A stretch of DNA of 64,000 bases, from NCBI GenBank assembly GCA_026387335.1, contig JAPLLX010000004.1:255045-319044 (forward strand), given 5' to 3'. Positions 16,109 to 63,166 of this stretch are shown piece after piece. The translations under genes were made by a program, and so were the position numbers. Position 1 is the stretch's first letter; the number at the start of each line of letters is the position of its first letter. Below the pieces are notes generated by a model. It was not told the DNA's origin and searched no databases. It worked only from the letters and a program-made list of their open reading frames with translations. Source of the stretch: Candidatus Omnitrophota bacterium (GTDB lineage Bacteria > Omnitrophota > Gorgyraeia > Gygaellales > Profunditerraquicolaceae).

Positions 16109-17449
16109 ATGGCTGAAATCACTCAAGCATGGAAACAGGTTCAGGACCAGATTCAAGAAGCCCTTGGCTTGACTATCTTTGAAACTTGGATTTTACCACT
16201 TAAGGCAATATCTCTGAACCAGGACTTATTGGTTTTAGAGGCGCCGGATACTTTCTTTAGGGACTGGGTGAAGAAAAATTACAGCTCAATCATTGAGAAC
16301 GCCTTTAGCGCGGCGGGGTTGGGAAAAATTAAAGTGGAGGTAGAAGCCAGTAGCGCGGTGAGCGCTGAACCCGACCGGGAACTACCGGCTAAAACCCTAA
16401 CCCAGGCTACCCGCGATAATCAGTACGGTTTAAACTTAAACAGCCGCTACACGTTTGACAATTTTGTTATCGGGCCTTCTAACCGGCATGCCCACGCCTA
16501 CTCTATAGCCGTGGCGGATTCTCTGGCCAAAACCTATAATCCCTTATTTATCTACGGCGGGGTGGGGTTAGGCAAAACTCATTTAATCCAGGCCATCTGC
16601 CATCAAATAAAAAATAAACTGGGAGACAGTTTAAAAATTGCCTACCTGCCATCGGAACAATTTACCAATGAGCTTATTAGCGCCATACAGCGCCACTCCA
16701 CAGCGGCTTTCCGGCAAAAATACCGGAACACCGACGTCCTAGTTATTGATGATGTGCATTTTTTTGGCGGGAAAGATTCTACCCAGGAAGAATTCTTTAA
16801 TACCTTTAACGTGTTATATGACGCGCACAAGCAAATAATTTTATCGTCGGATAGGCCGCCCAAGGAAATCGCGGATTTACAGGACCGGCTGGTTTCGCGT
16901 TTTGGCTGGGGGCTGACTACAGATATACAACCTCCGGACCTGGAAACGCGAGTGGCGATATTAAAGAAAAAAATTGAGCGCGAGCCGGTCTCTGTACCCG
17001 ACGACGTTATATTTTTTATTGCCCAGTTAATTAAAACTAATATCCGGGAGCTGGAAGGCGCTTTAGTCAGGACCATGGCTTATTCTTTAATGGAAGAAAA
17101 ACCCATAACTCTGAATTTAACCAAAGAGGTCCTGAAAGACCTCTTGAAAGAACCGAAGAAATTAATAACCGTGGATTTTATTCAACGCTGCGTTGCCGAA
17201 GACTTCGGTATTGCTTTGGCAGAACTCAAAGCCAAAAAAAGAAATAAGACAATAGTCTTACCTCGGCAAATAGCTATGTATTTAAGCAGGGAGTTAACGG
17301 ATCTATCCTTGCCTGAGATTGGCCAGTTTTTTGGCGGGAAAGACCACACAACAGTCTTGCATTCTTATAATAAAATAAAAGGGGAGTTGGGGGAGAACCC
17401 ATCCTTACAGGAAAAGGTAGAACGTATTATACAAATAGTCAAACATTAA
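16109..17449 (+). CDS. dnaA: chromosomal replication initiator DnaA
   Basis: AAA+ motifs [25 protein letters not shown]-terminal DNA-binding domain; 446 aa. Confidence 0.95.
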
Positions 17450-17593
17450 ACCCCCAGGTTATTCAAGGTTATTTTTTGTTTTAGTTATGTTGAGTTGGAG
17501 TAGGTTGGGGGGTTTTGAACAGGTTGGTAAGTATCTTATTACTACTGCTTTTTAAGTATTATATTAAATAATGAATAGTAAGGAGAAAGAAAA

Positions 17594-18685
17594 ATGAAAC
17601 TTAAGGTGGATAAAAGTATTTTATTGGGAGGGATACAAACCGTACAAAACGTAATCATAACTAAAGCTACCTTGCCCATATTATCCAATATTTTAATTGA
17701 GGCTCAAAGTAGTAGTTTAAGGCTTACAGCTACGGATTTAGATATTGGGATAAGCTGTGTAATACCTGTTGATGTCCAGGAACAGGGGGCGATCACTCTT
17801 CCAGCTAAAAGGTTTAGTGATATTATTAAAGAATTACCCGCGGATAGCGTTACTATAACCACTAAAAAAAATAACCAGGTTAATATTGAAACCGACTTAT
17901 GCCAGTTTAAAATTATGGGGTTAGCTAAAGAAGAGTTTCCTAAGTTGCCGGAATTTAAAGATAAAGAGGTTATCAAACTAGATCAGGCATTATTAAAAGG
18001 GGCCCTAACCCTGACTTCCTTTTCCGTCTCTATTGATGAATCGCGCTATATTTTAAACGGGATACTTTTTAAGGTCAATAAAAACAATCTGACCCTGGTG
18101 GCTACCGACGGTAAGAGGTTAGCGATTATGGAAAAGAAGTTAAACTCTAACCCGGAAAGAGATATTAGTATAATTGTGCCGGTGAAAACCATCCATGAAT
18201 TAAACCGGAATTTAAAAGAAAGCGGAGAGGTGTCTTTGGTGTTGGGAAGTAATCAGGTGTTGTTTGACTTAGGTAGCGTGATAGTGATTTCGCGCTTAAT
18301 CGAGGGCGAATTTCCGGACTACAAACAAGTGATTCCTGTAGCATCTGAAAATAAGGTGCGCCTGAATAAAGAGCAGTTTTTATTAGCGGTCAAAAGAGCG
18401 GCCTTATTATCTACGCCGGATTATCAAGCGGTCAAGTTTGAAGTTTTTAAGAATAAATTAGTGGTTTCTAAGTCTACTCCCGATGTAGGAGAATCGCGGG
18501 AAGAATTAGCGGTTGTCTATCAAGGGAAAGAGTTGGCCATAGGTTTTAATCCCTCTTATTTAATAGATGTTTTAAAAAACTTAAACGTTGAGGAGATAGA
18601 CCTGGAATTGACTGACGCGGAAAAACCCGGGGTTATCCGGATTAACGGATATGTTTATATTGTGTTGCCTATGCGCCTGAGTTAA
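17594..18685 (+). CDS. dnaN: DNA polymerase III beta sliding clamp
   Basis: 363 aa, three-domain clamp, dnaA-dnaN synteny. Confidence 0.93.
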   Translation: MKLKVDKSILLGGIQTVQNVIITKATLPILSNILIEAQSSSLRLTATDLDIGISCVIPVDVQEQGAITLPAKRFSDIIKELPADSVTITTKKNNQVNIETDLCQFKIMGLAKEEFPKLPEFKDKEVIKLDQALLKGALTLTSFSVSIDESRYILNGILFKVNKNNLTLVATDGKRLAIMEKKLNSNPERDISIIVPVKTIHELNRNLKESGEVSLVLGSNQVLFDLGSVIVISRLIEGEFPDYKQVIPVASENKVRLNKEQFLLAVKRAALLSTPDYQAVKFEVFKNKLVVSKSTPDVGESREELAVVYQGKELAIGFNPSYLIDVLKNLNVEEIDLELTDAEKPGVIRINGYVYIVLPMRLS

Positions 18686-26687: not shown

Positions 26688-27236
26688 TTGCTACCTATGA
26701 AAGAAAAAGCCAAGATATTAGATAAAGACGCGATTGCCAGAATCGCGACGCGTATCTCCCATGAAATAGTCGAGAAGAATAAAGGCGTAGAAAATCTCTG
26801 CCTTATTGGGATACGGAACCGCGGGGTTTATTTAGCCCAGCGTTTAGCCAAATGTATTAAAAATATTGAAGGCGCGGATATTCCTACCGGAGCGCTGGAT
26901 ATAACTTTATACCGGGATGATCTGGCCCTGGCTTCCGGCCAGCCATTGGTGCGTAAGACCGAAATAGATTTTGATATTAACGGTAAAAACCTGATTTTGG
27001 TGGATGATGTTTTATATACCGGGCGCACGGTAAGGGCGGCTTTGGATGCGTTGATTGACTTCGGCCGGCCAAAATCCATATCGCTGGCGGTTTTGATTGA
27101 CCGTGGCCACCGGGAATTGCCGATCCGGGCGGATTACGCCGGTAAAAATATCCCGACTTCCAAGGATGAAGCAGTAGAGGTGCGCCTGCAGGAGACTGAA
27201 GGCGTAGACGAAGTCGTAATTGTTGAGAAAAATTAA
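26688..27236 (+). CDS. pyrR: bifunctional pyrimidine operon regulator / uracil phosphoribosyltransferase PyrR (TTG start)
   Basis: PRTase motif [19 protein letters not shown]; 182 aa. Confidence 0.88.
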
Positions 27237-28187
27237 ATGGGTTGGATAAGAAAAGACTTGTTGGGGCTGGAAGAACTAAGTCAAGAAGAATTAGAGCTGA
27301 TTCTTTCTACCGCCGAGAGTTTTAAAGAGGTTTCTAGCCGCGAGATCAAGAAAGTTCCGGCGTTACGCGGCAAGACCGTGGTAAATTTATTCTACGAACC
27401 CTCCACGCGTACCCGTGTTTCCTTTGAGGTGGCTGCCAAAAGGCTCTCCGCCGACGTAATTAATATCGCTACCGAAACCTCAAGTGTCAAAAAGGGCGAG
27501 ACCCTTATTGATACCGGCAGGAATATTGAAGCGCTGAAAGCCGATATTATAGTTATGCGCCATAATTTTAGCGGCGCGGCAGTCATGCTCGCTCGTCACG
27601 TTAATTTAAGCGTAGTCAATGCCGGAGACGGCTGGCATGAACATCCTACCCAGGCCCTCCTGGATATTTTTACCTTAAAGGAAAAGCTGGGTAAGCTTGA
27701 GGGTTTGAACGTAAGCATAGTAGGAGATATCGCGCATTCGCGGGTAGCCCGCTCAAATATATGGGGGTTGACTAAATTGGGAGTCAAGGTCACTGTCTGC
27801 GCGCCCAAGATGCTTATTCCGGTGGCGATAGAAAAGATGGGCGTAGCGGTTACCAGCGATATAGATGAGGCCTTAAGAAACGCGGACGCCGTAAATGTCT
27901 TAAGGATGCAGTTTGAACGCGACGGAGAAACCGCGTTCCCTAAGCAGTTGGAATATTTCAAGGAGTTTGGGATCACGCAAGAGAGATTGAAGAAAGCCAA
28001 AAAAGATATTATCGTAATGCACCCGGGGCCGATAAACCGCGGGATCGAGATGTCTAGCGATGTGGCGGATGGGGCAAATTCGGTAATATTGGAGCAGGTC
28101 ACCAATGGTATCGCGGTGAGAATGGCGGTTTTATTTTTGGTAGCCCAAGCCAACGAAAAAATAAAAAACAATGAAGACTTTAATTAA
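27237..28187 (+). CDS. pyrB: aspartate carbamoyltransferase catalytic subunit
   Basis: STRTRVSFE carbamoyl-phosphate binding motif, HPGP; 316 aa. Confidence 0.92.
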   Translation: MGWIRKDLLGLEELSQEELELILSTAESFKEVSSREIKKVPALRGKTVVNLFYEPSTRTRVSFEVAAKRLSADVINIATETSSVKKGETLIDTGRNIEALKADIIVMRHNFSGAAVMLARHVNLSVVNAGDGWHEHPTQALLDIFTLKEKLGKLEGLNVSIVGDIAHSRVARSNIWGLTKLGVKVTVCAPKMLIPVAIEKMGVAVTSDIDEALRNADAVNVLRMQFERDGETAFPKQLEYFKEFGITQERLKKAKKDIIVMHPGPINRGIEMSSDVADGANSVILEQVTNGIAVRMAVLFLVAQANEKIKNNEDFN

Positions 28188-29448
28188 GGGCGGCAGAGTA
28201 GTCGACCCGGCGAATAAAATTGATGCGCTAATGGATATATTAGTGGAAGATTCTAAGATATCCAAAGTAGCTAAAAATATTCAAGGCGCAGCGGATAAGA
28301 TAATTGATGCGTCGGGCAAAATTGTTCTGCCGGGACTTGTAGATATGCATGTGCATTTGCGGGAGCCGGGCAGGGAAGATAAAGAAACAATCTGCAGCGG
28401 CTCAAAGGCTGCTTTAGCCGGCGGAGTGACTAGTGTCCTGGCCATGCCCAATACCTCTCCGGCAATAGACTCAAAAGAAAATATTAAAATTATAAAAACA
28501 GCTATCCAAAAAAGCGCCAAGGCCAATTGTTTCATCTGCGCCGCTATTACTAAAGGAAGGCTAGGAGAAGAGTTAAGCGATTTCGCCAGCCTTAAAAAAG
28601 AAGGCGCGATTGCCCTCTCTGATGACGGCTCGTCGGTAGATAAGGACGCCCTTATGCTGGAGGCGTTTAAGCAAGCCAAAAAAGAGGATATTCTGGTAAT
28701 CTGCCATAGCGAAGATAAAAAGCTGGCAGCTGGCGGGGTAGTAAATTTAGGTTTTACTTCTACGCGTCTGGGGTTGCGCGGCATATCAACCGAGTCAGAA
28801 TATAAAAGGGTTGAGCGCGACATAAGGTTAGCTAAAGAAACCGGCGCCAGGGTGCATATTGCCCACGTAAGCTGCCAAGAATCGCTGGAAATTATTGCCC
28901 GGGCCAAAAAAAATAAGGTCAGGGTTACCTGCGAGAGTGCGCCGCATTATTTTACTTTTAATGAAGAAGCGGTCTTAGGTTATGATCCTAATTTTAAAAT
29001 GAACCCGCCGCTACGCTCTAAAGAGGATATGTTGGCTATCCGTAAAGGTTTGGCCGACGGTTTAATAGACGTGATCGCCTCAGATCACGCTCCGCATACT
29101 GAAAATGAAAAGGATATTGAGTTTGAACGCGCGGAATGCGGGGTAATCGGCTTAGAAACCGAATTAGCCGCAGCTATCACAGAGTTGATAGGCAATAACT
29201 TATTGGACTGGAGTAAACTGGTCCTCAAAATGTCGTTAAATCCCAGCCGGATTTTAGGCCTGAATAAAGGGACATTAAGCGTCGGCGCTGACGCGGATAT
29301 TATAGTAGTTGACCCTGAAAGAGAATGGGTAGTAAAAAAAGAAAATTTCTATTCCAAGTCTAAAAACTCATCTTTTATCGGCCGTTCGCTTAAGGGTTTT
29401 GTAGAATACACGCTTTGCCAAGGTAAGGTGCACAAATGGAATTCATAG
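28171..29448 (+). CDS. pyrC: dihydroorotase
   Basis: LPGLVDMHVHLREPG metal-binding motif, DHAPH; 425 aa. Confidence 0.9.
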   Translation: MKTLIKGGRVVDPANKIDALMDILVEDSKISKVAKNIQGAADKIIDASGKIVLPGLVDMHVHLREPGREDKETICSGSKAALAGGVTSVLAMPNTSPAIDSKENIKIIKTAIQKSAKANCFICAAITKGRLGEELSDFASLKKEGAIALSDDGSSVDKDALMLEAFKQAKKEDILVICHSEDKKLAAGGVVNLGFTSTRLGLRGISTESEYKRVERDIRLAKETGARVHIAHVSCQESLEIIARAKKNKVRVTCESAPHYFTFNEEAVLGYDPNFKMNPPLRSKEDMLAIRKGLADGLIDVIASDHAPHTENEKDIEFERAECGVIGLETELAAAITELIGNNLLDWSKLVLKMSLNPSRILGLNKGTLSVGADADIIVVDPEREWVVKKENFYSKSKNSSFIGRSLKGFVEYTLCQGKVHKWNS

Positions 29449-31757
29449 CCGATTTTCATGTCCATTCTAAATACTCGCGGGCTACCAGCCGCAATATGGA
29501 TGTCAAGAATTTAAGCGAATGGGCGAAGTTAAAAGGAATCACCCTTATAGGCACGGGAGATTTTACGCATCATTTGTGGCTGGAAGAACTAAAACACACC
29601 TTAGAAGATTGCGGGAATGGGTTATACCAGCATAATGGGGTCTATTTTATCCTGACTGCCGAGGTAAGCAGCATATATTCCAAAAAAAATAAAACCTACC
29701 GCATACACAATGTCATCATCGCTCCATCATTTAAAACCGTGGATAAAATAAATGACAAACTCGGCCGGCTGGGCAACCTGGCCAGCGACGGAAGGCCTAT
29801 CTTAGGGCTGGATGCCGCAGAACTGGCGCGGATTGTCTTTGGTATTGATGAAAACTGTATACTTGTCCCCGGGCATATCTGGACGCCCTGGTTTTCCCTC
29901 TTTGGCTCTATGTCAGGGTTTGACAGGATAGAAGATTGCTTTGAAGAGCAGACACCGAAAATATTTGCTTTGGAAACGGGCCTGTCTTGTTATGATGAAA
30001 AAACAGAGGTTTTAACTGAAAATGGCTGGAAGAAGTTCCCTGAAGTCAGCTATTCCGATAAAATTTGCACTTTGAATATTAAGACCGATAGAATTGAATT
30101 TCAAATTCCGCAAAGAATTTCTAATTATATTTATAAAGGGAAAATGTATAAACTCAGAACTAAAAGAGTAGATTTATTGGTAACCCCTAATCATAAGCTA
30201 CTATATAGCCCCTGCGATTTTAGAAACCGTAAGCCTTATTCTTTGAAAGAAGCAGAAAAGTTATTTAATAAATCCAAAATATTGAAAAAAGACGGTATCT
30301 GGATTGGAGAGAAACCAAAATATTTTACACTACCCGAAGTTAAAATGCAGCATGGTAGTAGATATTATTCCGGATTTCGTAATAAAAAAGAAAATCGCTT
30401 ACCTCTAAAACCCTGGCTAAAGTTTTTTGGTTTCTGGCTTGCAGAGGGCTGGACTAGCGAAGGCAAAGAGGGTGATTACAACGTTTGTGTATGTAACAAT
30501 GATGAAAATTTACTTAATGAAATGAAACAACTTCTTGAGTGCTTCGGTTATAAAGCTTATAAACGAGGTAACTTGGTTCGGGTGAGAGATTTTCAGTTAT
30601 TTCATTATTTAAGACAGTTTGGTAAATGTTATGATAAATTTATTCCATTGAATATTAAATCTCTCTCGAAAGAATTGTTAGAGATTCTATTACAATACTA
30701 TATTAAAGGGGACGGGCATATTTACGGAAGATCTGGAAAGGGTTTATCGGCAACAACCACCTCAATTCGTTTGCGTGACGATTTACAGGAGATAGCCCTA
30801 AAAATAGGGATTTCTGCGTATTACAAATTAGGCCAGAAAAAAGGTACCCCATTTTCTTCGCCCAGCACAAAAAAGATATACAAACAAAGAAACGATGCCT
30901 GGATTATTTATTTTATAAGGCGGAATAAACCAATAATTTTACCCTCAACAATAAAAAAACATAATTATACAGAAAAATGGGTAGATTACGAAGGATGGGT
31001 TTTCTGCGTTACTGTTCCTAATCATGTAATTTATATTCGCAGAAACGGTATTCCTCTTTGGTGCGGTAATTCCGACCCAGCAATGAATTGGCGCTTGAGC
31101 GCTTTAGATAAGTTTACCTTAATTTCCAATAGTGATGCACATTCACCGCAAAAAATTGGACGTGAGGGCAATGTCTTTGACTGCGAGCTTGATTATAAAA
31201 CAATAAGAGAAGTTTTAAAGACAAAAGATAAGAAACGGTTTTTATACACCATAGAGTTTTTCCCGGAAGAGGGGAAGTATCATTTTGACGGGCACCGGCT
31301 TTGCGGTATCCGTTGGTCGCCGAAGGAAACAAAAGAACACGCTGGCAAGTGCCCAAAATGCGGTAAGCCGGTTACTGTCGGGGTAGTGAACCGTGTAGAA
31401 AAATTAGCCGATAGGCCGCAAGGTTTTAAGCCCGAGAACGCCATACCTTTTAAACATTTAATACCTTTGGATGAAATAATCGCCGATGCCAAAGGCGTAG
31501 GCAAAACCAGTGTTGCGGTAGAAAGAGATTACCGGAGTTGCCTGAGTAAATTTGGGACAGAGTTTGAAATCCTGATGGCTGCTCCCAAGCAGGATCTGCT
31601 TAAAGGTTTACCTCCTAAAGTTGCGGAGGGGGTTCTAAGAGTACGTGAAGGTAAAGTCGATATTCAGGCTGGCTACGATGGCGAATATGGAATAATCTCT
31701 ATCTTTGGGAAGGAAGAGCCTGGCCAGAAAAACGAAGAACAATTGAGTTTATTTTAA
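29436..31757 (+). CDS. endonuclease Q (EndoQ-like PHP-domain DNA nuclease) interrupted by an intein. Host protein is residues 1-184 plus 546-773 (412 aa).
   Basis: N-extein DFHVHSKYSRATS...LIGTGDFTHHLW...ETGLS; C-extein SDPAMNWR...LISNSDAHSP...CGIRWSPKETKEHAGKCPKCG (Zn-ribbon), as in archaeal EndoQ; 773 aa in total. Confidence 0.8.
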   Translation: MEFIADFHVHSKYSRATSRNMDVKNLSEWAKLKGITLIGTGDFTHHLWLEELKHTLEDCGNGLYQHNGVYFILTAEVSSIYSKKNKTYRIHNVIIAPSFKTVDKINDKLGRLGNLASDGRPILGLDAAELARIVFGIDENCILVPGHIWTPWFSLFGSMSGFDRIEDCFEEQTPKIFALETGLSCYDEKTEVLTENGWKKFPEVSYSDKICTLNIKTDRIEFQIPQRISNYIYKGKMYKLRTKRVDLLVTPNHKLLYSPCDFRNRKPYSLKEAEKLFNKSKILKKDGIWIGEKPKYFTLPEVKMQHGSRYYSGFRNKKENRLPLKPWLKFFGFWLAEGWTSEGKEGDYNVCVCNNDENLLNEMKQLLECFGYKAYKRGNLVRVRDFQLFHYLRQFGKCYDKFIPLNIKSLSKELLEILLQYYIKGDGHIYGRSGKGLSATTTSIRLRDDLQEIALKIGISAYYKLGQKKGTPFSSPSTKKIYKQRNDAWIIYFIRRNKPIILPSTIKKHNYTEKWVDYEGWVFCVTVPNHVIYIRRNGIPLWCGNSDPAMNWRLSALDKFTLISNSDAHSPQKIGREGNVFDCELDYKTIREVLKTKDKKRFLYTIEFFPEEGKYHFDGHRLCGIRWSPKETKEHAGKCPKCGKPVTVGVVNRVEKLADRPQGFKPENAIPFKHLIPLDEIIADAKGVGKTSVAVERDYRSCLSKFGTEFEILMAAPKQDLLKGLPPKVAEGVLRVREGKVDIQAGYDGEYGIISIFGKEEPGQKNEEQLSLF
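29988..31070 (+). mobile_element. intein (361 aa) with LAGLIDADG homing-endonuclease domain, inserted in the EndoQ ETGLS|SDP motif
   Basis: Block A CYDEKTEVLTENGW, block B VTPNHKLLY, DOD motifs FFGFWLAEGWTS and LLQYYIKGDGHIYG, block G VFCVTVPNHVIYIRRNGIPLWCGN followed by +1 Ser. Removing it restores a contiguous EndoQ motif. Confidence 0.8.
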
Positions 31758-31758
31758 C

Positions 31759-31830
31759 GCGCCTGTGGCCCAACGGATAGGGCGCCAGCCTCCGGAGCTG
31801 GATGTGACAGTTCAATTCTGTCCAGGCGCA
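31759..31830 (+). tRNA. tRNA-Arg (anticodon CCG)
   Basis: Acceptor GCGCCTG/CAGGCGC, anticodon stem-loop CCAGC-CTCCGGA-GCTGG, T-arm GACAG-TTCAATT-CTGTC; starts 2 nt after the EndoQ stop. Confidence 0.85.
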
Positions 31831-31854
31831 TAAGAATAGTCTATAAGGAGTAAT

Positions 31855-32313
31855 ATGAAGAAAGTTATAAGTGTGATTGGAGGTAGAAATTGTACGCCTG
31901 AAGTGGAGATAATTGCCCAAGAATTAGGCAAAAAACTCTCAAAAGTGGCGGATATACTCGTTTGTGGGGGTCTAAGTGGAGTAATGGAGGCGGTTTGCTC
32001 GGGTTTTAAGGCTGGCGGAGGCCTAACTATAGGCATTATACCAAGTTACAATAAAAATGACGCCAATAAGTTCGTAGATATAGCCTTGCCTACAGGATTA
32101 GGATTAGCCAGAAATGTTTTAGTAGTTAAGGCCGCGGATGTAGTTATTGCTTTAGCGGGAAGGGCAGGAACCCTTTCGGAAATTGCTTATTGTATTCAAT
32201 TCGGGATACCGGTGATTACCCTGAATTCCTGGGATATTCCCGGGGTAATGAAATTAGATTCTGTAGATGAAGTAGTCAATAAAGTCCGGGAGTTGTTAAA
32301 GAAGGAGCAGTAA
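31855..32313 (+). CDS. LOG/TIGR00725-family Rossmann-fold protein (lysine-decarboxylase-like / SLOG)
   Basis: ISVIGGRNCTPE...VCGGLSGVMEAVCSGFKAGGGLTIGIIP...ALAGRAGTLSE pattern; 152 aa. Confidence 0.6.
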   Translation: MKKVISVIGGRNCTPEVEIIAQELGKKLSKVADILVCGGLSGVMEAVCSGFKAGGGLTIGIIPSYNKNDANKFVDIALPTGLGLARNVLVVKAADVVIALAGRAGTLSEIAYCIQFGIPVITLNSWDIPGVMKLDSVDEVVNKVRELLKKEQ

Positions 32314-33113
32314 TGCCGGAACTGCCGGAAGTGGAAACCATAAAACGCGATCTGGAAAAAGTAATCGTAGGTAAGAAGATTACCGAGGTTTGCGTGCGGA
32401 ATCGCGCGATTATCCGGGAGCCGGCGGTTTCTGTTTTTAAGAAGGGTCTGGAAGGCGTAGTTATCAAAAATATCTTACGCCGGGCCAAAGTTTTGATATT
32501 CGAGTTATCTAACGGCAAATCCTTAGTAATGCACCTTAAGATGACCGGGCAATTAGTTTATCCCGGAGGAGGCAAGAAGAGCCGGGTAGCCTTTCATTTC
32601 TCCGACGGCAAAATCCTGGATTTTAACGACCAGAGGCTCTTTGCTGAATTGCGCCTGTTGGATGATTGGCGGACCTTGAAATTCATTCAAAGCCTCGGGC
32701 CTGAGCCAGCGGATTTAAGTTTAAAGCAGTTTAAAGATATGTTAAAGGGAAAGAAAACCCGGATTAAGCCGTTATTAATGGACCAGTCGTTTATTGCAGG
32801 TATAGGCAACATCTATGCTTCAGAAATTTTATTCCGCGCCAAAATCAATCCTGAGCGCCGGGCGAATGCATTGACGGATAAAGAAAAAGAATTGCTCTTT
32901 AAGGCAATCAGTGATATTTTGAATGCGGCTGTGCGCCACGCCGGCTCCTCCGTTGACGATTATGTGCGACTTTCCGGAGAAAAAGGCGGATACGTGAAAT
33001 ATCATAAAGTCTATGGACGGCAAGGTAAGGCCTGCTTAGTCTGTAAGGCAATAATTAAGAAAATTAATCAGGGAGGAAGAGGCACCTATTTTTGCCCCAG
33101 GTGCCAAAAGTAA
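32313..33113 (+). CDS. mutM: formamidopyrimidine-DNA glycosylase
   Basis: N-terminal MPELPEVET catalytic Pro2/Glu3, C-terminal zinc finger CLVCKAIIKKINQGGRGTYFCPRCQ; 266 aa. Confidence 0.92.
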   Translation: MPELPEVETIKRDLEKVIVGKKITEVCVRNRAIIREPAVSVFKKGLEGVVIKNILRRAKVLIFELSNGKSLVMHLKMTGQLVYPGGGKKSRVAFHFSDGKILDFNDQRLFAELRLLDDWRTLKFIQSLGPEPADLSLKQFKDMLKGKKTRIKPLLMDQSFIAGIGNIYASEILFRAKINPERRANALTDKEKELLFKAISDILNAAVRHAGSSVDDYVRLSGEKGGYVKYHKVYGRQGKACLVCKAIIKKINQGGRGTYFCPRCQK

Positions 33114-33116
33114 GGA

Positions 33117-33689
33117 ATGAAGAAAAGAATAAAGATTAACGGAACAATTATGGCTTTGGCCATTATCCTGGTCGTGCTCTTCCGGGAAGCATTTTTCCGC
33201 CCGAGCAATCCGGGGTGGCTGGAAAATTCTCTAAGGGTAATAGGGCTGCTGGCTATATTTTTGGGCCAGCTTATCCGCGTTTCAGCCAGAGGTTACAAAG
33301 CCGAGCATTCTAAGAATAGCCATGCTTTGATTGAAGGCGGGCCCTATAAAATTGTGCGTAATCCTATGTATCTGGGGATCCTTTTAATCGGGCTGGGCGT
33401 AGTGCTTATGCTTTTTAACTGGTGGGTAGTCCTGCTATTTCTGTTAATTTTTGCTAGCCGCTACTTCCCGTTAATACTTAGCGAAGAGAAGAAATTGCAG
33501 AATATGTTCCCCGGGACTTATGAGGCGTATTGTCGCCGGGTTCCCCGAATGATCCCGCGGCTCGCTAGTTTAATTAAGGAAAGCGGCAGGGAATATTTAC
33601 CGCTAAAACCAGTTTGGTTTAAAAAAGAGATCAACTCGATAATCCCGCTTTTAATATTAATTGTGGCGTTTTTTCTCTGGAGAAGATGA
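33117..33689 (+). CDS. isoprenylcysteine carboxyl methyltransferase (ICMT)/phospholipid methyltransferase family membrane protein
   Basis: Multiple TM helices, LIEGGPYKIVRNPMYLG motif; 190 aa. Confidence 0.65.
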   Translation: MKKRIKINGTIMALAIILVVLFREAFFRPSNPGWLENSLRVIGLLAIFLGQLIRVSARGYKAEHSKNSHALIEGGPYKIVRNPMYLGILLIGLGVVLMLFNWWVVLLFLLIFASRYFPLILSEEKKLQNMFPGTYEAYCRRVPRMIPRLASLIKESGREYLPLKPVWFKKEINSIIPLLILIVAFFLWRR

Positions 33690-34450
33690 AAAATTTTCAA
33701 CTAAAAGCAAAAATATTGGCGCAAACCAAAATAAAGGATAACTACTGGCATTGTGAATTCAGCGCTCCGCAAATCGCTAAAAATGCCCTGCCCGGACAAT
33801 TTATCAATATCCGGGTAAGCGCTAATTTTGACCCGCTTTTAAGAAGGCCGATTAGCCTACACGGAGTAAGCGCAGCCAAGGTAAAGATTGTTTATGAAGT
33901 AGTGGGTAAGGCCACAGAAATCTTAGTGCGCAAGAAAAAAGGCGAGTTTTTGGATATTATCGGGCCTTTGGGCAATGGTTTTGATCTTGGGATGCAGAAG
34001 GCAGAAGGCAGAAGGCAAATATTAGTAGCGGGAGGAATGGGTGTCGCTCCGCTGATGTTTCTGGCGGAAAAATTAAAAGTCCCCAGCCTAGTCTTGATTG
34101 GAGCAAAGACAAAAAAAGACTTGCTCTGTGTCCAAGAATTTAAAAAATTGGGTTGTAGCGTAAAGATTTCTACCGATGATGGTTCGCTGGGATTCAAAGG
34201 CAGGGTAACCGAGTTATTAAGGAATAACTTAACTAAAAGTTGCGCGCTATACGCCTGTGGGCTTAAGCCCATGCTTAAGGTAATTTCAGATATTGCAAAT
34301 GAATATAATATCCCGGCGCAGGTATCCTTAGAAGAACATATGAGTTGCGGAATTGGCGCATGTTTAGGTTGCGTAGTGAAAACAAAAGAAGGTTTAAAGC
34401 GGGTTTGTCAAGAAGGCCCGGTTTTTAAGGCGCAGGATTTAATCTGGTAA
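33686..34450 (+). CDS. pyrK: dihydroorotate dehydrogenase electron transfer subunit
   Basis: FAD/NAD-binding fold plus C-terminal 2Fe-2S Cys cluster (MSCGIGACLGCVV); 254 aa; followed by pyrD. Confidence 0.85.
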   Translation: MKNFQLKAKILAQTKIKDNYWHCEFSAPQIAKNALPGQFINIRVSANFDPLLRRPISLHGVSAAKVKIVYEVVGKATEILVRKKKGEFLDIIGPLGNGFDLGMQKAEGRRQILVAGGMGVAPLMFLAEKLKVPSLVLIGAKTKKDLLCVQEFKKLGCSVKISTDDGSLGFKGRVTELLRNNLTKSCALYACGLKPMLKVISDIANEYNIPAQVSLEEHMSCGIGACLGCVVKTKEGLKRVCQEGPVFKAQDLIW

Positions 34451-34451
34451 A

Positions 34452-35372
34452 ATGATGAAACCCAAAATTTCCGTAGAAATAGGCAAACTTAAATTAAATA
34501 ACCCGGTCATGGTGGCCTCGGGCACTTTTGGTTACGCCGAAGAATTTAAGGATTTTATGGATGTAAAAAAACTCGGCGCCATTGTTACTAAAACTTTAAC
34601 TTTAAAACCGCGTAAAGGTAATCCTATGCCGCGCACCTGTGAGACGGCCGCAGGCATGCTTAATTCCATCGGATTAGAGAATCCGGGTTTGGCAATTTTT
34701 ATCCGGGAGAAACTTCCTTTCTTAAAAAAGACAGGCGTCCCGATAATCATTAGTGTAGCTTCCGAAGAAAAACCCGAAGAATTCCTGGAGTTAGTCGCGC
34801 AACTAAATATCATTGAAGAAGTCGCGGCAATTGAATTGAACATTTCTTGCCCTAATATTCAAGGGAAGGAGAGCTTGATTGCGCAGGATCCCGCGGCTAC
34901 TTATAAAATCGTTCAAGAAGTGCGCAAAATTACCGGCAAAACGCTTATTACCAAGCTTTCTCCCAATGTTACTTCTATCGGTGATATTGCTCAGGCTGCC
35001 GAAGACGCAGGGAGCGACGCGGTGGCCTTAATTAATACCTTAAGCGCGATGAGTATAGATGTAGATAAGAGAAGGCCCAAGATTGCCGCCGGAATAGCGG
35101 GTTTAAGCGGACCGGCAATCCGGCCGGTAGCCGTAAAGATGGTCTGGGAAGTTTTTAATAAGGTGAAGATCCCGATTATCGGTATGGGCGGGATAATGGA
35201 TACCGCAAGCGCCCTGGAATTTATTATTGCCGGAGCCAGCGCGGTAAGCGTCGGAACAGCGAATTTTATTAATCCGGGGGTAAGCCTAGAAATAATAGCC
35301 GGCTTAAAAGAATACCTGGTTAAAAACAAAATCAGCGATATCCGGGAACTTATGGGAGCCTTGAAAATATGA
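34452..35372 (+). CDS. pyrD: dihydroorotate dehydrogenase catalytic subunit (class 1B)
   Basis: NPVMVASGTFGYAEEF, TIM-barrel DHOD motifs; 306 aa. Confidence 0.9.
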   Translation: MMKPKISVEIGKLKLNNPVMVASGTFGYAEEFKDFMDVKKLGAIVTKTLTLKPRKGNPMPRTCETAAGMLNSIGLENPGLAIFIREKLPFLKKTGVPIIISVASEEKPEEFLELVAQLNIIEEVAAIELNISCPNIQGKESLIAQDPAATYKIVQEVRKITGKTLITKLSPNVTSIGDIAQAAEDAGSDAVALINTLSAMSIDVDKRRPKIAAGIAGLSGPAIRPVAVKMVWEVFNKVKIPIIGMGGIMDTASALEFIIAGASAVSVGTANFINPGVSLEIIAGLKEYLVKNKISDIRELMGALKI

Positions 35373-60935: not shown

Positions 60936-61751
60936 ATGACCAAAATTAAAACTCAAGTTTCCATAATCCTCGCGGTTATATTCCTGTCGGGTTGCGCCTG
61001 CTATAGTTTTAAAAAAGGCGAGTCTCCCTACAATAACGGTTTTGTAGCCTCAAGATACGGCAGAGTACTTCCTGAATATACCATCGGTAAAGACAATTCT
61101 GTCCCGGATGAAGCGGTAGCTAAGGAACGCTTCAAAAGGCGTAGGATTGAAGTCGAGGCTTATTATAAAAAAATGGGTTATATTAAAAACCGCTTTAGAC
61201 AGATGTTTATTGACCCGCCTTTTTTTATGATTCAGGCTGTATCCGGTGTGTTCTATATGCCATCAGTAGCTATCAATGATTACAAATATAATCACGATGC
61301 CGCATATAAAGAGAAGATAGACAAACAGGAAGATGCTGAGTATAGGGCTGAAAAAGAGCGGCTCAGGGTTTTAAAGGAGAAACTAAACTCTTACATTCAG
61401 AATGATTTACAGAAAGAAACGCCCGCAGTCGCGCCAACCGCAGAACCGGTTAAAAAAGAATCTTTGCCACCGGAAAAGGCCAAGCCAGTTGTTAGTGAAG
61501 AAGCTCTTGCGCCTAAGGCCGTAGAAGCTCCTGCCAAGGAAGTGGCTGCGAAGATTCCTAACGCGGTTATCGTTGCTAAACCCCTGAAAGGGGTTTCGCC
61601 TTTAACTGTGCAATTTTACGGTTCTAAATCTTCTTCTCCCAACGGCAGGATAATCTCTTATCTTTGGGATTTTGGCGACGGAGATACCTCTACAAAGAAG
61701 AATCCTATGAATACCTACTGGAGCACAACCTACGGCTCGCGTAAACATTGA
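60936..61751 (+). CDS. lipoprotein with Pro/Ala/Lys-rich linker and a C-terminally truncated PKD domain
   Basis: Lipobox LSGCA; PKD-like LTVQFYGSKSSSPNGRIISYLWDFGDGDTSTKKNPMNTY then stops mid-domain, 25 nt before a family A element; 271 aa. Confidence 0.5.
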   Translation: MTKIKTQVSIILAVIFLSGCACYSFKKGESPYNNGFVASRYGRVLPEYTIGKDNSVPDEAVAKERFKRRRIEVEAYYKKMGYIKNRFRQMFIDPPFFMIQAVSGVFYMPSVAINDYKYNHDAAYKEKIDKQEDAEYRAEKERLRVLKEKLNSYIQNDLQKETPAVAPTAEPVKKESLPPEKAKPVVSEEALAPKAVEAPAKEVAAKIPNAVIVAKPLKGVSPLTVQFYGSKSSSPNGRIISYLWDFGDGDTSTKKNPMNTYWSTTYGSRKH

Positions 61752-61775
61752 AGTACTTTCAAAATAAAACTCTTT

Positions 61776-61836
61776 AAATAGGGACAGCGACCGTTTTTTG
61801 TCTATGCGACCAAAAAAACGGTCGCTGTCCCTATTT
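61776..61836. repeat. family A palindromic element, copy 5 (variant arms ...CCGTTTTTT)
   Basis: Seen directly. Confidence 0.85.
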
Positions 61837-62114
61837 AATTCGATTTTTGAGTTTTAGCTGAAATAAAAGATATTGTAAATATTAGGGATACGTCAAAACC
61901 GCCTCTTACTTTCAAAACCCCGAAAATAGCTATTTTTAGCAAAATAAACCCTTCAAATTTATCAAATCCCAAAAATCTCCGCTTCCGACGGAAAAATCAA
62001 AGATTTTACTTGACAAAATGTATAATATGCTTTATCATTTGTTATTATATTATAGTACTTACTATAATACACTATATACTGCTATTTGTTCTGCATTTAA
62101 AAAAAGGAGCACTA

Positions 62115-62345
62115 ATGAACAAAACCTTAATCTCACCTATTGAAATCAGTAAAAAATACAACATCTCCTATCAAACAATAAATTATTACACTAATCTGGG
62201 TTTATTAAAAGTGCGCCGGCGCGAAGGAAATAACCGGTTGTATAACAACAGGGAAGTGCGCTCGGGGTTAAGCAGGATAACGAAATTAAAGAGCCAGGGT
62301 TATTCCTTGCATCTTATCCGCGGGATTGTCATGAAAGAACAATGA
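62115..62345 (+). CDS. MerR-like HTH transcriptional regulator (short)
   Basis: ISPIEISKKYNISYQTINYYTNLGLL resembles the MerR N-terminal HTH. Start placed at the internal ATG (MNKTLIS); the ORF-track start at 62010 adds an implausible hydrophobic leader. Confidence 0.5.
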   Translation: MNKTLISPIEISKKYNISYQTINYYTNLGLLKVRRREGNNRLYNNREVRSGLSRITKLKSQGYSLHLIRGIVMKEQ

Positions 62346-63166
62346 GCTATTACTCGGTATTAGGCCTGAATAAAGAACCTTTTTCCACCAGCCCCGACCC
62401 GGAGTTTTTCTACGAGTCCAACGAGCATAAAGCCTGTCTCCTGCGGGTATTGGTAGAAATACGGCTGCGCCGGGGCTTAAGCGTTATTTTAGGAGATGTA
62501 GGCGTTGGTAAGACCACACTTTCACGTAAGCTTTTTCAGATGCTTAAAGAAAGACCGGATATACTTTTTTATATGGTGTTGGACCCGACTACCCCCAACG
62601 AAGAACTATTTCTGGAGTCATTAGTGCGGACGTTTAATATCCAGGATGAGCTCAAAACTTCACCCAGCATACTGGATTATAAAGAGGCGATCAAAAAATT
62701 TCTTTTTCAAAAAGGCGTAGAGGAAAATAAAACAATAGTTTTTGTTATAGACGAAGCCCAAAAACTTAATCCGGCTGCTTTGGAGATGCTACGCGTTTTA
62801 TTAAATTATGAGACTAATGAATATAAATTATTGCAGCTGGTTTTATTCTCGCAGATGGAGCTTTTGCCCCGGATAAAAGAGATTAAAAACTTTTTTGACC
62901 GGATAGTGCTTAAATATGTTATTAACCCTCTGGATGAAAAAGAGACCAGGGACATGATTAATTTTCGGTTGCAGCAGTCGGGCTTTAACTCAGAGCTGAA
63001 ACTCTTTACCGATGAGGCAATTAGCGAGATCCATCATTATAGCCAGGGTTACCCGCGCAGGATCAACCTGATTTGCCATAACGCGCTAAGGAATCTGATC
63101 ACCTCTAACCGGACAGTGATCGACGCTACCTTAGTGCGGGACCTGATAGCCAGGAGCGCAGTATAA
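62342..63166 (+). CDS. ExeA/GspA/MshM-type AAA+ ATPase of type II secretion / type IV pilus systems
   Basis: Walker A LGDVGVGKTTL, Walker B IVFVIDEAQ; 274 aa. Confidence 0.7.
   Translation: MSYYSVLGLNKEPFSTSPDPEFFYESNEHKACLLRVLVEIRLRRGLSVILGDVGVGKTTLSRKLFQMLKERPDILFYMVLDPTTPNEELFLESLVRTFNIQDELKTSPSILDYKEAIKKFLFQKGVEENKTIVFVIDEAQKLNPAALEMLRVLLNYETNEYKLLQLVLFSQMELLPRIKEIKNFFDRIVLKYVINPLDEKETRDMINFRLQQSGFNSELKLFTDEAISEIHHYSQGYPRRINLICHNALRNLITSNRTVIDATLVRDLIARSAV

Follow-up and report, generated by a model that had tools for sequence, protein, structure and literature searches.

A predicted LAGLIDADG-bearing intein in the lesion-pocket motif of an endonuclease Q homologue of Candidatus Omnitrophota

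The window, a 64-kb stretch of Candidatus Omnitrophota DNA, contains a 773-aa ORF (29436..31757, ATG start) that very likely encodes an endonuclease Q (EndoQ) precursor interrupted by a 361-aa class 1 intein, which carries a two-motif LAGLIDADG endonuclease and would both splice and home. On sequence evidence the exteins are an EndoQ homologue, and the intein is real and probably active. The insertion is in frame in a conserved host protein that is contiguous in intein-free homologues. The precursor has a predicted mass of 89 kDa, and the ORF, its parts and the adjoining tRNA gene lie on the forward strand. The N-extein (29436..29987, residues 1-184) ends with the lesion-pocket motif ETGLS (E167-S171 of Pyrococcus furiosus EndoQ, hereafter Pfu), the intein (29988..31070, precursor residues 185-545) runs from Cys1 to ...WCGN, and the C-extein (31071..31757) comprises residues 546-773 plus the stop codon. 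The ORF and the motifs quoted for it in a preliminary description of this DNA were all recovered in the translation (DFHVHSKYS, GTGDFTHH, ETGLS, NSDAHSP, CYDEKTEVLTENGW, VTPNHKLLY, FFGFWLAEGW, YIKGDGHIY and NGIPLWCGN|S).

The host protein and the insertion site

The spliced extein (412 aa) aligns end to end with P. furiosus EndoQ (PDB 5zb8, 7k30-7k33), a member of the TIGR00375 / MJ0043_C family; in the comparison with 5zb8/7k30, residues 5-395 match residues 5-382 with an E value of 1.7e-58 and without a gap across the junction. The preliminary description had proposed this alignment as a check on the EndoQ identity of the exteins, which is borne out by it. The PHP-domain metal ligands H8, H10, E76, H91 and H147 correspond to Pfu H8, H10, E76, H84 and H139, and the window protein has the complete set of two-metal ligands (Pfu H8, H10, E76, H84, H139 and D193), which its homologues conserve as well. 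The lesion pocket (Pfu H139, T142, E167, L168, G169, L170, N191 and D193) and the W144 wedge are likewise conserved, except that L168 is replaced by Thr. The roles of these metal ligands, pocket residues and wedge were established for the Pfu enzyme, in which the lesion pocket is built from E167, L168, G169 and L170 and activity is lost on mutation to G169A or L170A (PMC5961232). Like P. furiosus EndoQ, the window protein also has zinc-ribbon and C-terminal helical domains, and its C-terminal domain is Pfam PF27218 MJ0043_C; unlike it, the window protein has Thr at L168 and His as the first zinc ligand, and the PCNA-binding tail of the archaeal enzyme finds no alignment. The ribbon, earlier given as CxxC...CxxC, in fact reads HxxC...CxxC with His as the first ligand in 120/121 homologues, and is probably still a zinc site. 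The score against NCBIfam TIGR00375 (199.3 bits) lies below the equivalog cut-off (326.6 bits), so the window protein ranks as a homologue within the family and not as a certified equivalog. It is predicted to nick DNA 5′ of dU, dI or AP sites, the activity by which the EndoQ host family is defined.

The insertion point is ETGLS|SDP, after the equivalent of Pfu Ser171 and adjoining the pocket residues E167-L170. The proposed placement in a conserved catalytic-region motif agrees with the structural data, as the site falls within the catalytic or lesion-recognition region (PMC5961232). Eleven intein-free alleles were translated; each encodes 412 aa and shows no alignment gap at ETGLS|SDP, and a motif scan found the junction uninterrupted in 40 Omnitrophota loci. 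Because the break coincides exactly with ETGLS|SDP in all 11 alleles and the 40 loci are uninterrupted there, the reading as an insertion is far beyond chance. The intein-free alleles are 78% to 91% identical to the window exteins (86-91% for the closest). The intein boundaries initially assigned, residues 185-545 (nt 29988-31070), match these empty alleles exactly, and the expectation that excision restores ETGLS-SDP and a host of normal size likewise held, the 412-aa product being collinear with natural intein-free alleles.

The EndoQ gene lies downstream of pyrR, pyrB and pyrC, with a 13-nt overlap between its 5′ end and the 3′ end of pyrC, and is followed by genes for a TIGR00725 protein, fpg, an ICMT-like protein, pyrK and pyrD. 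A tRNA-Arg gene (anticodon CCG, 31759-31830) abuts it, separated from the stop codon by a single base, in line with the earlier placement of this tRNA close to the 3′ end. The pyr-operon gene order is the same in the single empty-site locus compared (L041), and tRNA-Arg directly follows the EndoQ gene in all four empty-site loci compared; since intein-free alleles share this juxtaposition, the tRNA lies outside the mobile element. The position of the gene within the pyr operon is thus as first reported, where it was said to interrupt the operon, but the arrangement is conserved in the lineage, with or without the intein.

Splicing and endonuclease domains of the insert

The N-terminal splicing (HINT) half (29988..30320) contains block A (CYDEKTEVLTENGW) and block B (VTPNH, nt 30180-30194), and the C-terminal splicing half (30888..31070) contains block F (VFCVTVPNH) and block G (NGIPLWCGN), the last two placed by motif alignment to a canonical EndoQ intein at another site, site c (VYDLTIPN...ITHN|S). 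Among 121 homologous sequences that are 57-90% identical, Cys185 (intein position 1), Asn252 and His253 of block B and the whole WCGN|Ser+1 end, with Asn545 and Ser546, are invariant (121/121 each). The block-B TxxH is T250-P-N-H253, of which Thr and Pro are invariant in a 21-sequence alignment (A1). The penultimate residue is Gly544 rather than His, again in 121/121, and Cys524 occupies the place of the usual block-F Asp, this position being Cys in 93 and Ser in 28 of the 121 sequences. The HINT fold is found in the AF2 model and in the top Foldseek matches, which are inteins over both halves, and TIGR01445 (intein_Nterm) just reaches its cut-off with 24.5 bits; Pfam Intein_splicing, at 17.8-20.2 bits against a gathering score of 35.8, stays sub-threshold. 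A profile of the intein family matches the AceL NrdHF intein (E 2.9e-5). The geometry of Cys1, terminal Asn and Ser+1 and the intein blocks are thus present, and a lineage-specific domain lacking them, the contrary outcome named in the preliminary description, was not encountered.

The penultimate His (G:6) is missing in ~5% of functional inteins (PMC4031507), and among the inteins in which a non-His residue there impairs splicing is Ceu ClpP (cited in PMC4031507). The Gly in place of His that had been singled out beforehand is correctly read, but it is constant across the family and lies within the known variation of inteins. The weak point of the predicted splicing may be that two helper positions, the penultimate Gly and the block-F Cys, are non-canonical. 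Two related classes were considered and rejected. The class 3 triplet is Trp(B:12)/Cys(F:4)/Thr(G:5), whereas the window intein has Cys1, Leu at B:12 and Cys at G:5, so that only the F:4 Cys fits, and this is Ser in 28/121. Class 3 inteins have no position-1 nucleophile and a conserved Cys at F:4, along with two more conserved positions that the source leaves unnamed (PMC4031507). A bacterial intein-like (BIL) domain is likewise excluded by the invariant Ser+1 and the insertion in the EndoQ pocket motif, as BIL domains are without a +1 nucleophile and do not occur in conserved sites of housekeeping enzymes (PMC4031507).

Between the splicing halves lies the LAGLIDADG homing-endonuclease domain (30321..30887), recognised by Pfam LAGLIDADG_3 (E 7e-16, two stretches), by its fold and by its catalytic acids. 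The two LAGLIDADG helices are LKFFGFWLAEG in motif 1 (LKFFGFWLAEGW, nt 30417-30452, catalytic Glu337) and LLQYYIKGDG in motif 2 (LLQYYIKGDGHIY, nt 30687-30725, catalytic Asp426), and the acidic residues are kept in 119/121 sequences. The AF2 model of the intein (pLDDT 81, pTM 0.82) has the duplicated alpha-beta-beta-alpha-beta-beta-alpha fold, as seen in the model secondary structure and by Foldseek. All of the top 16 Foldseek matches in the PDB are endonuclease-bearing inteins, headed by TliVMA (6.7e-16) and followed by PI-PkoII, PhoVMA, PI-SceI and PI-PfuI; I-DmoI, I-SceI and I-Tsp061I are also matched, with TM(target) of 0.46-0.65. A PDB search with the single intein sequence gave no match, and only the family profile did so, with PI-PkoII best (5.8e-8). 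Taken together, the Pfam, profile and fold matches uphold the original description of the insert as an intein with a LAGLIDADG endonuclease.

The window intein resembles its top structural matches, TliVMA and PhoVMA (PDB 7qsu, 7qss, 7qst), PI-PkoII (2cw7), PI-PfuI (1dq3) and PI-SceI (1vde) (Foldseek E 7e-16 to 1e-10), in a HINT domain split by a two-motif LAGLIDADG endonuclease, in Cys1 and the terminal Asn, and in insertion at a conserved active-site motif of an enzyme that acts on nucleic acids or ATP. Unlike them, it resides in EndoQ, shares just 10-18% identity with them, and has Gly rather than His as the penultimate residue and Cys or Ser for the block-F Asp; the invariant WCGN end of its family is absent from all five.

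From this geometry and conservation, the HINT domain would fold after translation, Cys185 would undergo an N-S acyl shift, and attack by Ser546 (+1) would give a branched intermediate. Cyclisation of Asn545 would free the 42.8-kDa intein, and an O-N shift would yield the 46.4-kDa EndoQ with the ETGLS-SDP loop restored. Since this loop lines the damaged-base pocket beside the two-metal site, EndoQ should stay inactive until spliced.

Probable mobility and distribution of EndoQ inteins

The intein is the lowest-GC 1083-nt stretch of the window (GC 33.6%, GC3 29.6%), against 44-45% for the exteins and 44% for the window, and in 31 of 36 loci the intein is poorer in GC than the exteins. In comparison with the intein-bearing locus L082, the intein DNA is 89.6% identical and the exteins 72.5% and 66.5%, the identity dropping at the intein ends; more generally, hosts that are 62-73% identical in their exteins have intein DNA of 86-90% identity. 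At synonymous sites the intein gives a dS of 0.36-0.97, whereas the exteins are saturated. The endonuclease domain (dN/dS 0.06-0.08) and the host (extein dN/dS 0.03-0.06, against the intein-bearing allele L081) are, judged by these sequence ratios, under purifying selection. In pairs of a bacterium and an archaeon, the inteins are 63.5% and the exteins 47.7% identical, and the intein is the more similar in 298/304 pairs; this higher conservation could in part reflect strong constraint, not recent transfer. Ser+1 is encoded by TCN in 39/39 alleles with the intein and by AGY in 28/40 empty alleles, a contrast significant within Omnitrophota-type alleles (Fisher p = 1.4e-4, phylogenetic non-independence ignored) and possibly a signature of target resistance or co-conversion. 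These comparative data suggest that the free intein or the precursor would act as a site-specific DNA endonuclease on intein-free EndoQ alleles, cleaving at roughly GAAACNGGNYTNTCN|TCNGAYCCN, and that repair from an intein-bearing copy would copy the intein in (homing).

The allele at this site, here called site b, is present in no fewer than 120 protein clusters and in 39 species-level genomes, which belong, as far as the partly unreliable MAG taxon labels allow, to CPR bacteria, Omnitrophota and several archaeal phyla; near-identical Omnitrophota loci differ in whether they carry it. Inteins occupy four or five different positions in EndoQ genes: besides b there is site a, following the equivalent of His139, site c, following that of His195, site e, within the zinc-ribbon CxxC, and a tentative site d. 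Sites a and b are occupied together in two proteins (P0041 and P0067). These other inteins share with site b the host family, a location in functional motifs and a sporadic distribution; their insertion points are unrelated to it, and at the clean-junction sites a, c and e they end ...HN|C or ...HN|S, in contrast to GN|S in the site-b family. In a search of representatives with the N-extein, the intein-bearing proteins fell into few 50% clusters. Long N-extein matches, considered as further inteins, were mostly EndoQ-UvrD fusions.

The best 120 matches of a PfuEndoQ search aimed at Methanocaldococcus were all Thermococcales relatives, and all were intein-free (120/120). Methanocaldococcus jannaschii MJ0043, the namesake of the PF27218 MJ0043_C domain also found in the window protein, probably carries the 'Mja Hyp-1' intein of InBase and the TIGR00375 comment; if so, an EndoQ-family intein has presumably been on record since 1996. 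No EndoQ intein was met in the literature searched (inteins with EndoQ, Omnitrophica, CPR, DPANN or MJ0043), and the main text of a 2016 intein survey is silent on the subject. The rarity at first assumed for an EndoQ intein allele is not supported by the cluster and site counts given above.

Alternative readings and implications

It is improbable that the intein splices but is vertically inherited with a dead endonuclease, at a late or 'fixed' stage of the homing cycle. Many full-size inteins do have decayed endonucleases, and most sampled relatives in the lineage are intein-free, many with an AGY +1 codon and so maybe without a target. Against this stand the two catalytic acids kept in 119/121 sequences, the low endonuclease dN/dS, an intein dS well below that of the exteins, the 86-90% DNA identity between inteins of hosts with far more divergent exteins, and a foreign GC content that has yet to ameliorate. 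Still less probable is an intein that serves mainly as a conditional switch, with redox, temperature or DNA damage triggering the putative splicing and the cysteines near the splice junctions (Cys1, the block-F Cys and the one before Gly-Asn) acting as sensors. Disulfide-controlled splicing is known in other inteins, and a position in the lesion pocket of a precursor that should be inactive, the invariant WCGN and the block-F Cys of 93/121 homologues would suit such a role. Conditional splicing of inteins is among the subjects treated in PMC4031507. The block-F position is Ser in 28/121 homologues, however, regulation by the intein is dispensable, as close relatives function in its absence, and the signs of mobility suffice to account for its being there.

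The penultimate Gly, the missing block-F Asp and the sub-threshold Pfam splicing score might also point to a non-splicing domain insertion, an inactivated gene or an assembly chimera with no functional EndoQ, but this is scarcely credible. The frame is intact, the splice residues are invariant, and the same architecture on >100 independent contigs dismisses an assembly artefact. Moreover, exteins under purifying selection (dN/dS 0.03-0.06) with all EndoQ catalytic residues intact make sense only if mature enzyme is produced. A splicing and homing intein in EndoQ remains the preferred reading.

The window element is an ordinary kind of intein, already common in public metagenome data. As it is a textbook intein when taken alone, its main use lies in annotation: the gene should be annotated as giving a 412-aa EndoQ and a free homing endonuclease, and the labels 'hypothetical protein' or 'LAGLIDADG endonuclease' for a 773-aa product should be avoided. 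To our knowledge, EndoQ has so far been studied only in the intein-free Thermococcales, Methanosarcina and Bacillus. In uncultivated lineages EndoQ is a multi-site intein host and a natural system for homing dynamics. The site-b intein, with a similarity between bacteria and archaea above that of the host gene, is a possible vector of inter-domain transfer, and its Gly-Asn junction, which by nature lacks His throughout a large family, is a possible tool for intein engineers. It is tempting, if rather unlikely, that the site-b family is actively homing across CPR, Omnitrophota and DPANN/other archaea in shared groundwater and sediment, with splicing that is conditional (for example on redox) through its unusual Cys-rich, His-less junction (Cys1, Cys or Ser at F:4, WCGN|S). 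If this were true, the element would also serve as a post-translational switch for a nuclease that repairs uracil and hypoxanthine.

The host enzyme and its locus

An open reading frame on the forward strand at 29436–31757, translated as 773 aa, is interrupted by a 361-aa insert (nt 29988–31070, residues 185–545) that begins with CYDEKTEV and ends with LWCGN; removal of the insert leaves 412 aa. The joined exteins align over residues 5 to 395 with endonuclease Q (EndoQ) of Pyrococcus furiosus (PfuEndoQ; PDB 5zb8, 7k30; E 1.7e-58), and the alignment is gap-free at the junction (...ALETGLS-SDPAMNW versus ...FLELGLS-ADSDMAD), which bears out the assignment of the host as an EndoQ homologue in the preliminary description. 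The full-length match to TIGR00375 scores 199 bits, short of the equivalog cut-off of 326.6 bits, and the Pfam domain MJ0043_C is found in the protein. Counted along the alignment, the insertion point lies after Pfu Ser171. Pfu Glu167, Leu168, Gly169, and Leu170 line the deaminated-base pocket adjoining the two-zinc site, and the PfuEndoQ mutants G169A and L170A lost activity (PMC5961232). Every Pfu metal ligand and every pocket residue except Leu168, which is Thr here, is present in the window protein and also conserved in its intein-bearing relatives. The C-terminal zinc ribbon (31293–31361, precursor residues 620–642), initially written as CxxC...CPKC, needs a small correction: its first ligand is His, not Cys (HxxC...CxxC), as in 120 of 121 homologues. 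The ribbon of this EndoQ clade is of the His-Cys3 type, as opposed to the C4 site of PfuEndoQ, and probably still binds zinc.

When genomes were scanned, one for each species, 40 Omnitrophota loci were uninterrupted at the ETGLS|SDP site, most of them matching the window exteins over 1,236 nt (412 codons), with identities of 78–91% (86–91% for the closest). The 11 empty alleles that were translated are 412 aa long and show no gap at ETGLS|SDP, precisely the contiguous host protein that excision had been proposed to restore. Upstream of the EndoQ gene lie pyrR, pyrB, and pyrC, the last of which overlaps its start codon; downstream, tRNA-Arg(CCG) (31759–31830) is followed by genes for a TIGR00725 protein, fpg, an ICMT-like methyltransferase, pyrK, and pyrD (NCBIfam). 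In each of the four empty-site loci examined the tRNA abuts the EndoQ gene, and one empty-site locus, L041, has the gene order of the window. Given these uninterrupted relatives and the shared gene order and tRNA, the insert represents a clean presence/absence polymorphism, and the locus that harbours it is conserved. It had been remarked that the gene interrupts the pyr operon; the arrangement is real, but is a lineage trait independent of the intein, since L041 shares it.

Within 26688–35372, the EndoQ gene, tRNA-Arg(CCG), the TIGR00725 (LOG-like) gene, fpg/MutM, and the ICMT-like gene are thus placed between pyrR-pyrB-pyrC and pyrK-pyrD, a layout that is kept in related Omnitrophota (L041 and the intein-bearing locus L081, the latter with an additional carbamoyl-phosphate-synthase-like gene inserted before fpg). 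Because of this conserved layout and the overlap of the EndoQ start with pyrC, two base-damage repair genes, EndoQ and fpg/MutM, appear to share a transcript with genes of pyrimidine biosynthesis.

Identity of the intein

Pfam LAGLIDADG_3 matches the insert in two stretches (E 7e-16); Intein_splicing gives only sub-threshold matches, and the TIGR01445 intein_Nterm score is exactly the cut-off. A profile built from 21 family members (alignment A1) matches PI-PkoII (5.8e-8), the N-terminal half of an NrdHF intein (2.9e-5), and VMA inteins. The 16 best PDB matches of an AlphaFold2 model computed from A1 (pLDDT 81, pTM 0.82) are all endonuclease-bearing inteins (TliVMA, 6.7e-16; PI-PkoII; PhoVMA; PI-SceI; PI-PfuI), and free LAGLIDADG enzymes such as I-DmoI rank after them. 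Conservation was scored over 121 sequences (57–90% identical). None of them departs from Cys1, the Asn-His of block B, WCGN at the C terminus, or Ser+1; within the A1 subset the same holds for Thr and Pro of the TPNH motif, and the LAGLIDADG catalytic acids E337 and D426 are retained in 119 of 121. The domain match, the intein-like fold of the model, and the invariant splice residues together uphold the original reading of an intein with a LAGLIDADG endonuclease.

The penultimate Gly, singled out earlier as a departure from the usual His, is present and invariant in all 121 sequences; it is therefore a constant feature of the family and does not mark a damaged intein. Roughly 5% of functional inteins have a residue other than His at this position, and at block F:4 Cys ranks second in frequency (PMC4031507); the atypical Gly-Asn junction thus lies within known intein variation. 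Membership of class 3 was rejected on the presence of Cys1 and the absence of the Trp/Cys/Thr triplet, and a BIL domain on the invariance of Ser+1. By sequence and model, the element is best described as a typical class-1 endonuclease-bearing intein at the catalytic-site motif of a DNA-repair enzyme, and the earlier structural interpretation holds in all essentials.

EndoQ inteins and fusions in public data

The preliminary description knew of no EndoQ intein allele. In agreement, no description of an EndoQ intein was found in the literature, and inteins are unmentioned in the EndoQ literature examined; in public data, however, the architecture is abundant, being carried by at least 120 clusters at 90% identity, some of which NCBI annotates as “LAGLIDADG family homing endonuclease” or “PHP domain-containing protein.” The MJ0043_C domain takes its name from MJ0043, which is presumably listed in InBase as the host of the “Mja Hyp-1” intein. 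The window intein belongs to a well-known kind, in a host allele that is new or at any rate undescribed.

Another intein site in EndoQ, unrelated to the first, directly follows the His that acts as a zinc ligand (Pfu H139; ...PAH|CLLP...VVHN|CWTPW). It is occupied in two Omnitrophota genomes whose window site is empty (L059:6001–8475 and L069:6001–8478; Intein_splicing 40.1 bits, above the cut-off) and in the proteins P0246, P0268, P0354, P0041, and P0067, of which P0041 and P0067 (about 1200 aa) carry two inteins each, at this and the window site. Among P0253, P0248, and P0339 there are also a 520-aa intein after the His195 equivalent (SDAH|CVHPD...ITHN|SPAK), one inside the zinc-ribbon CxxC whose +1 nucleophile is a zinc-ligand Cys (GICPV|CVKGD...ALVHN|CGKPL), and, tentatively, a further one before GKYH whose terminal residue appears to be Gln instead of Asn. 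The 120 best PfuEndoQ relatives, all from Thermococcales, contain no inteins. In a comparison at the 50% cluster level, most of the nearest relatives of the N-extein, many of them 1000–1270 aa long, appear from their length to be fusions of EndoQ to a C-terminal UvrD/REP-type helicase. The four long ones scanned (P0244, P0247, P0251, P0260) are such fusions, which are unmentioned in the EndoQ literature examined (including PMC5961232).

Spread, probable mobility, and maintenance

The allele occurs in CPR bacteria, Omnitrophota, and Pacearchaeota (one complete 711-kb genome), as well as in Woese-, Micr-, Aenigm-, Bathy-, Thaum-, and Brockarchaeota. Four loci on MAG contigs labelled “uncultured Planctomycetales” (L001, L058, L073) or Paceibacterota (L047) carry Omnitrophota-type EndoQ alleles that are 79–87% identical to the window exteins, in L001 also with the adjacent tRNA-Arg; these labels look wrong or the bins contaminated, and taxon counts for the host range of the intein therefore need caution.

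In bacterium-archaeon pairs, identity is 63.5% for the intein and 47.7% for the exteins, and the intein is the more similar part in 298 of 304 pairs (74.9% versus 45.1% in the closest). The mean protein identity to the 120 homologues is 70% for the window intein and 60% for its exteins. At the DNA level, intein identity to the window is 89.6% in L082 (exteins, 72.5% and 66.5%) and 85.5% in L001 (71.4% and 62.4%), falling at the intein ends and most sharply at the C-terminal junction; synonymous divergence has reached saturation in the exteins but is 0.36–0.97 in the intein. The intein (GC 33.6%, GC3 29.6%; exteins, 44–45% and 42–51%) is the lowest-GC 1083-nt stretch of the 64-kb window (mean 43.8%), and in 31 of 36 loci the intein has a lower GC than the exteins. 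The only other 1083-nt stretches of the window at or below 37% GC, at about 17000–18500 and about 61750–62830, could likewise be foreign or AT-rich.

All 39 intein-bearing alleles have TCN as the Ser+1 codon (31071–31073), and 28 of the 40 empty Omnitrophota alleles have AGY, including all of the nearest, empty, relatives of the window (Omnitrophota-type alleles, Fisher p = 1.4e-4, uncorrected for phylogeny). This pattern would fit either co-conversion of the flank during homing or resistance of AGY targets to cleavage. Taken together, these comparisons provide good evidence that the intein is, or recently was, mobile and has recently spread horizontally. The dN/dS ratio is 0.06–0.08 in the endonuclease domain, 0.03–0.14 in the splicing halves, and 0.03–0.06 in the exteins (measured against L081); the low values in the endonuclease domain and the exteins indicate that endonuclease and host enzyme are both maintained, which would imply that the intein splices productively.
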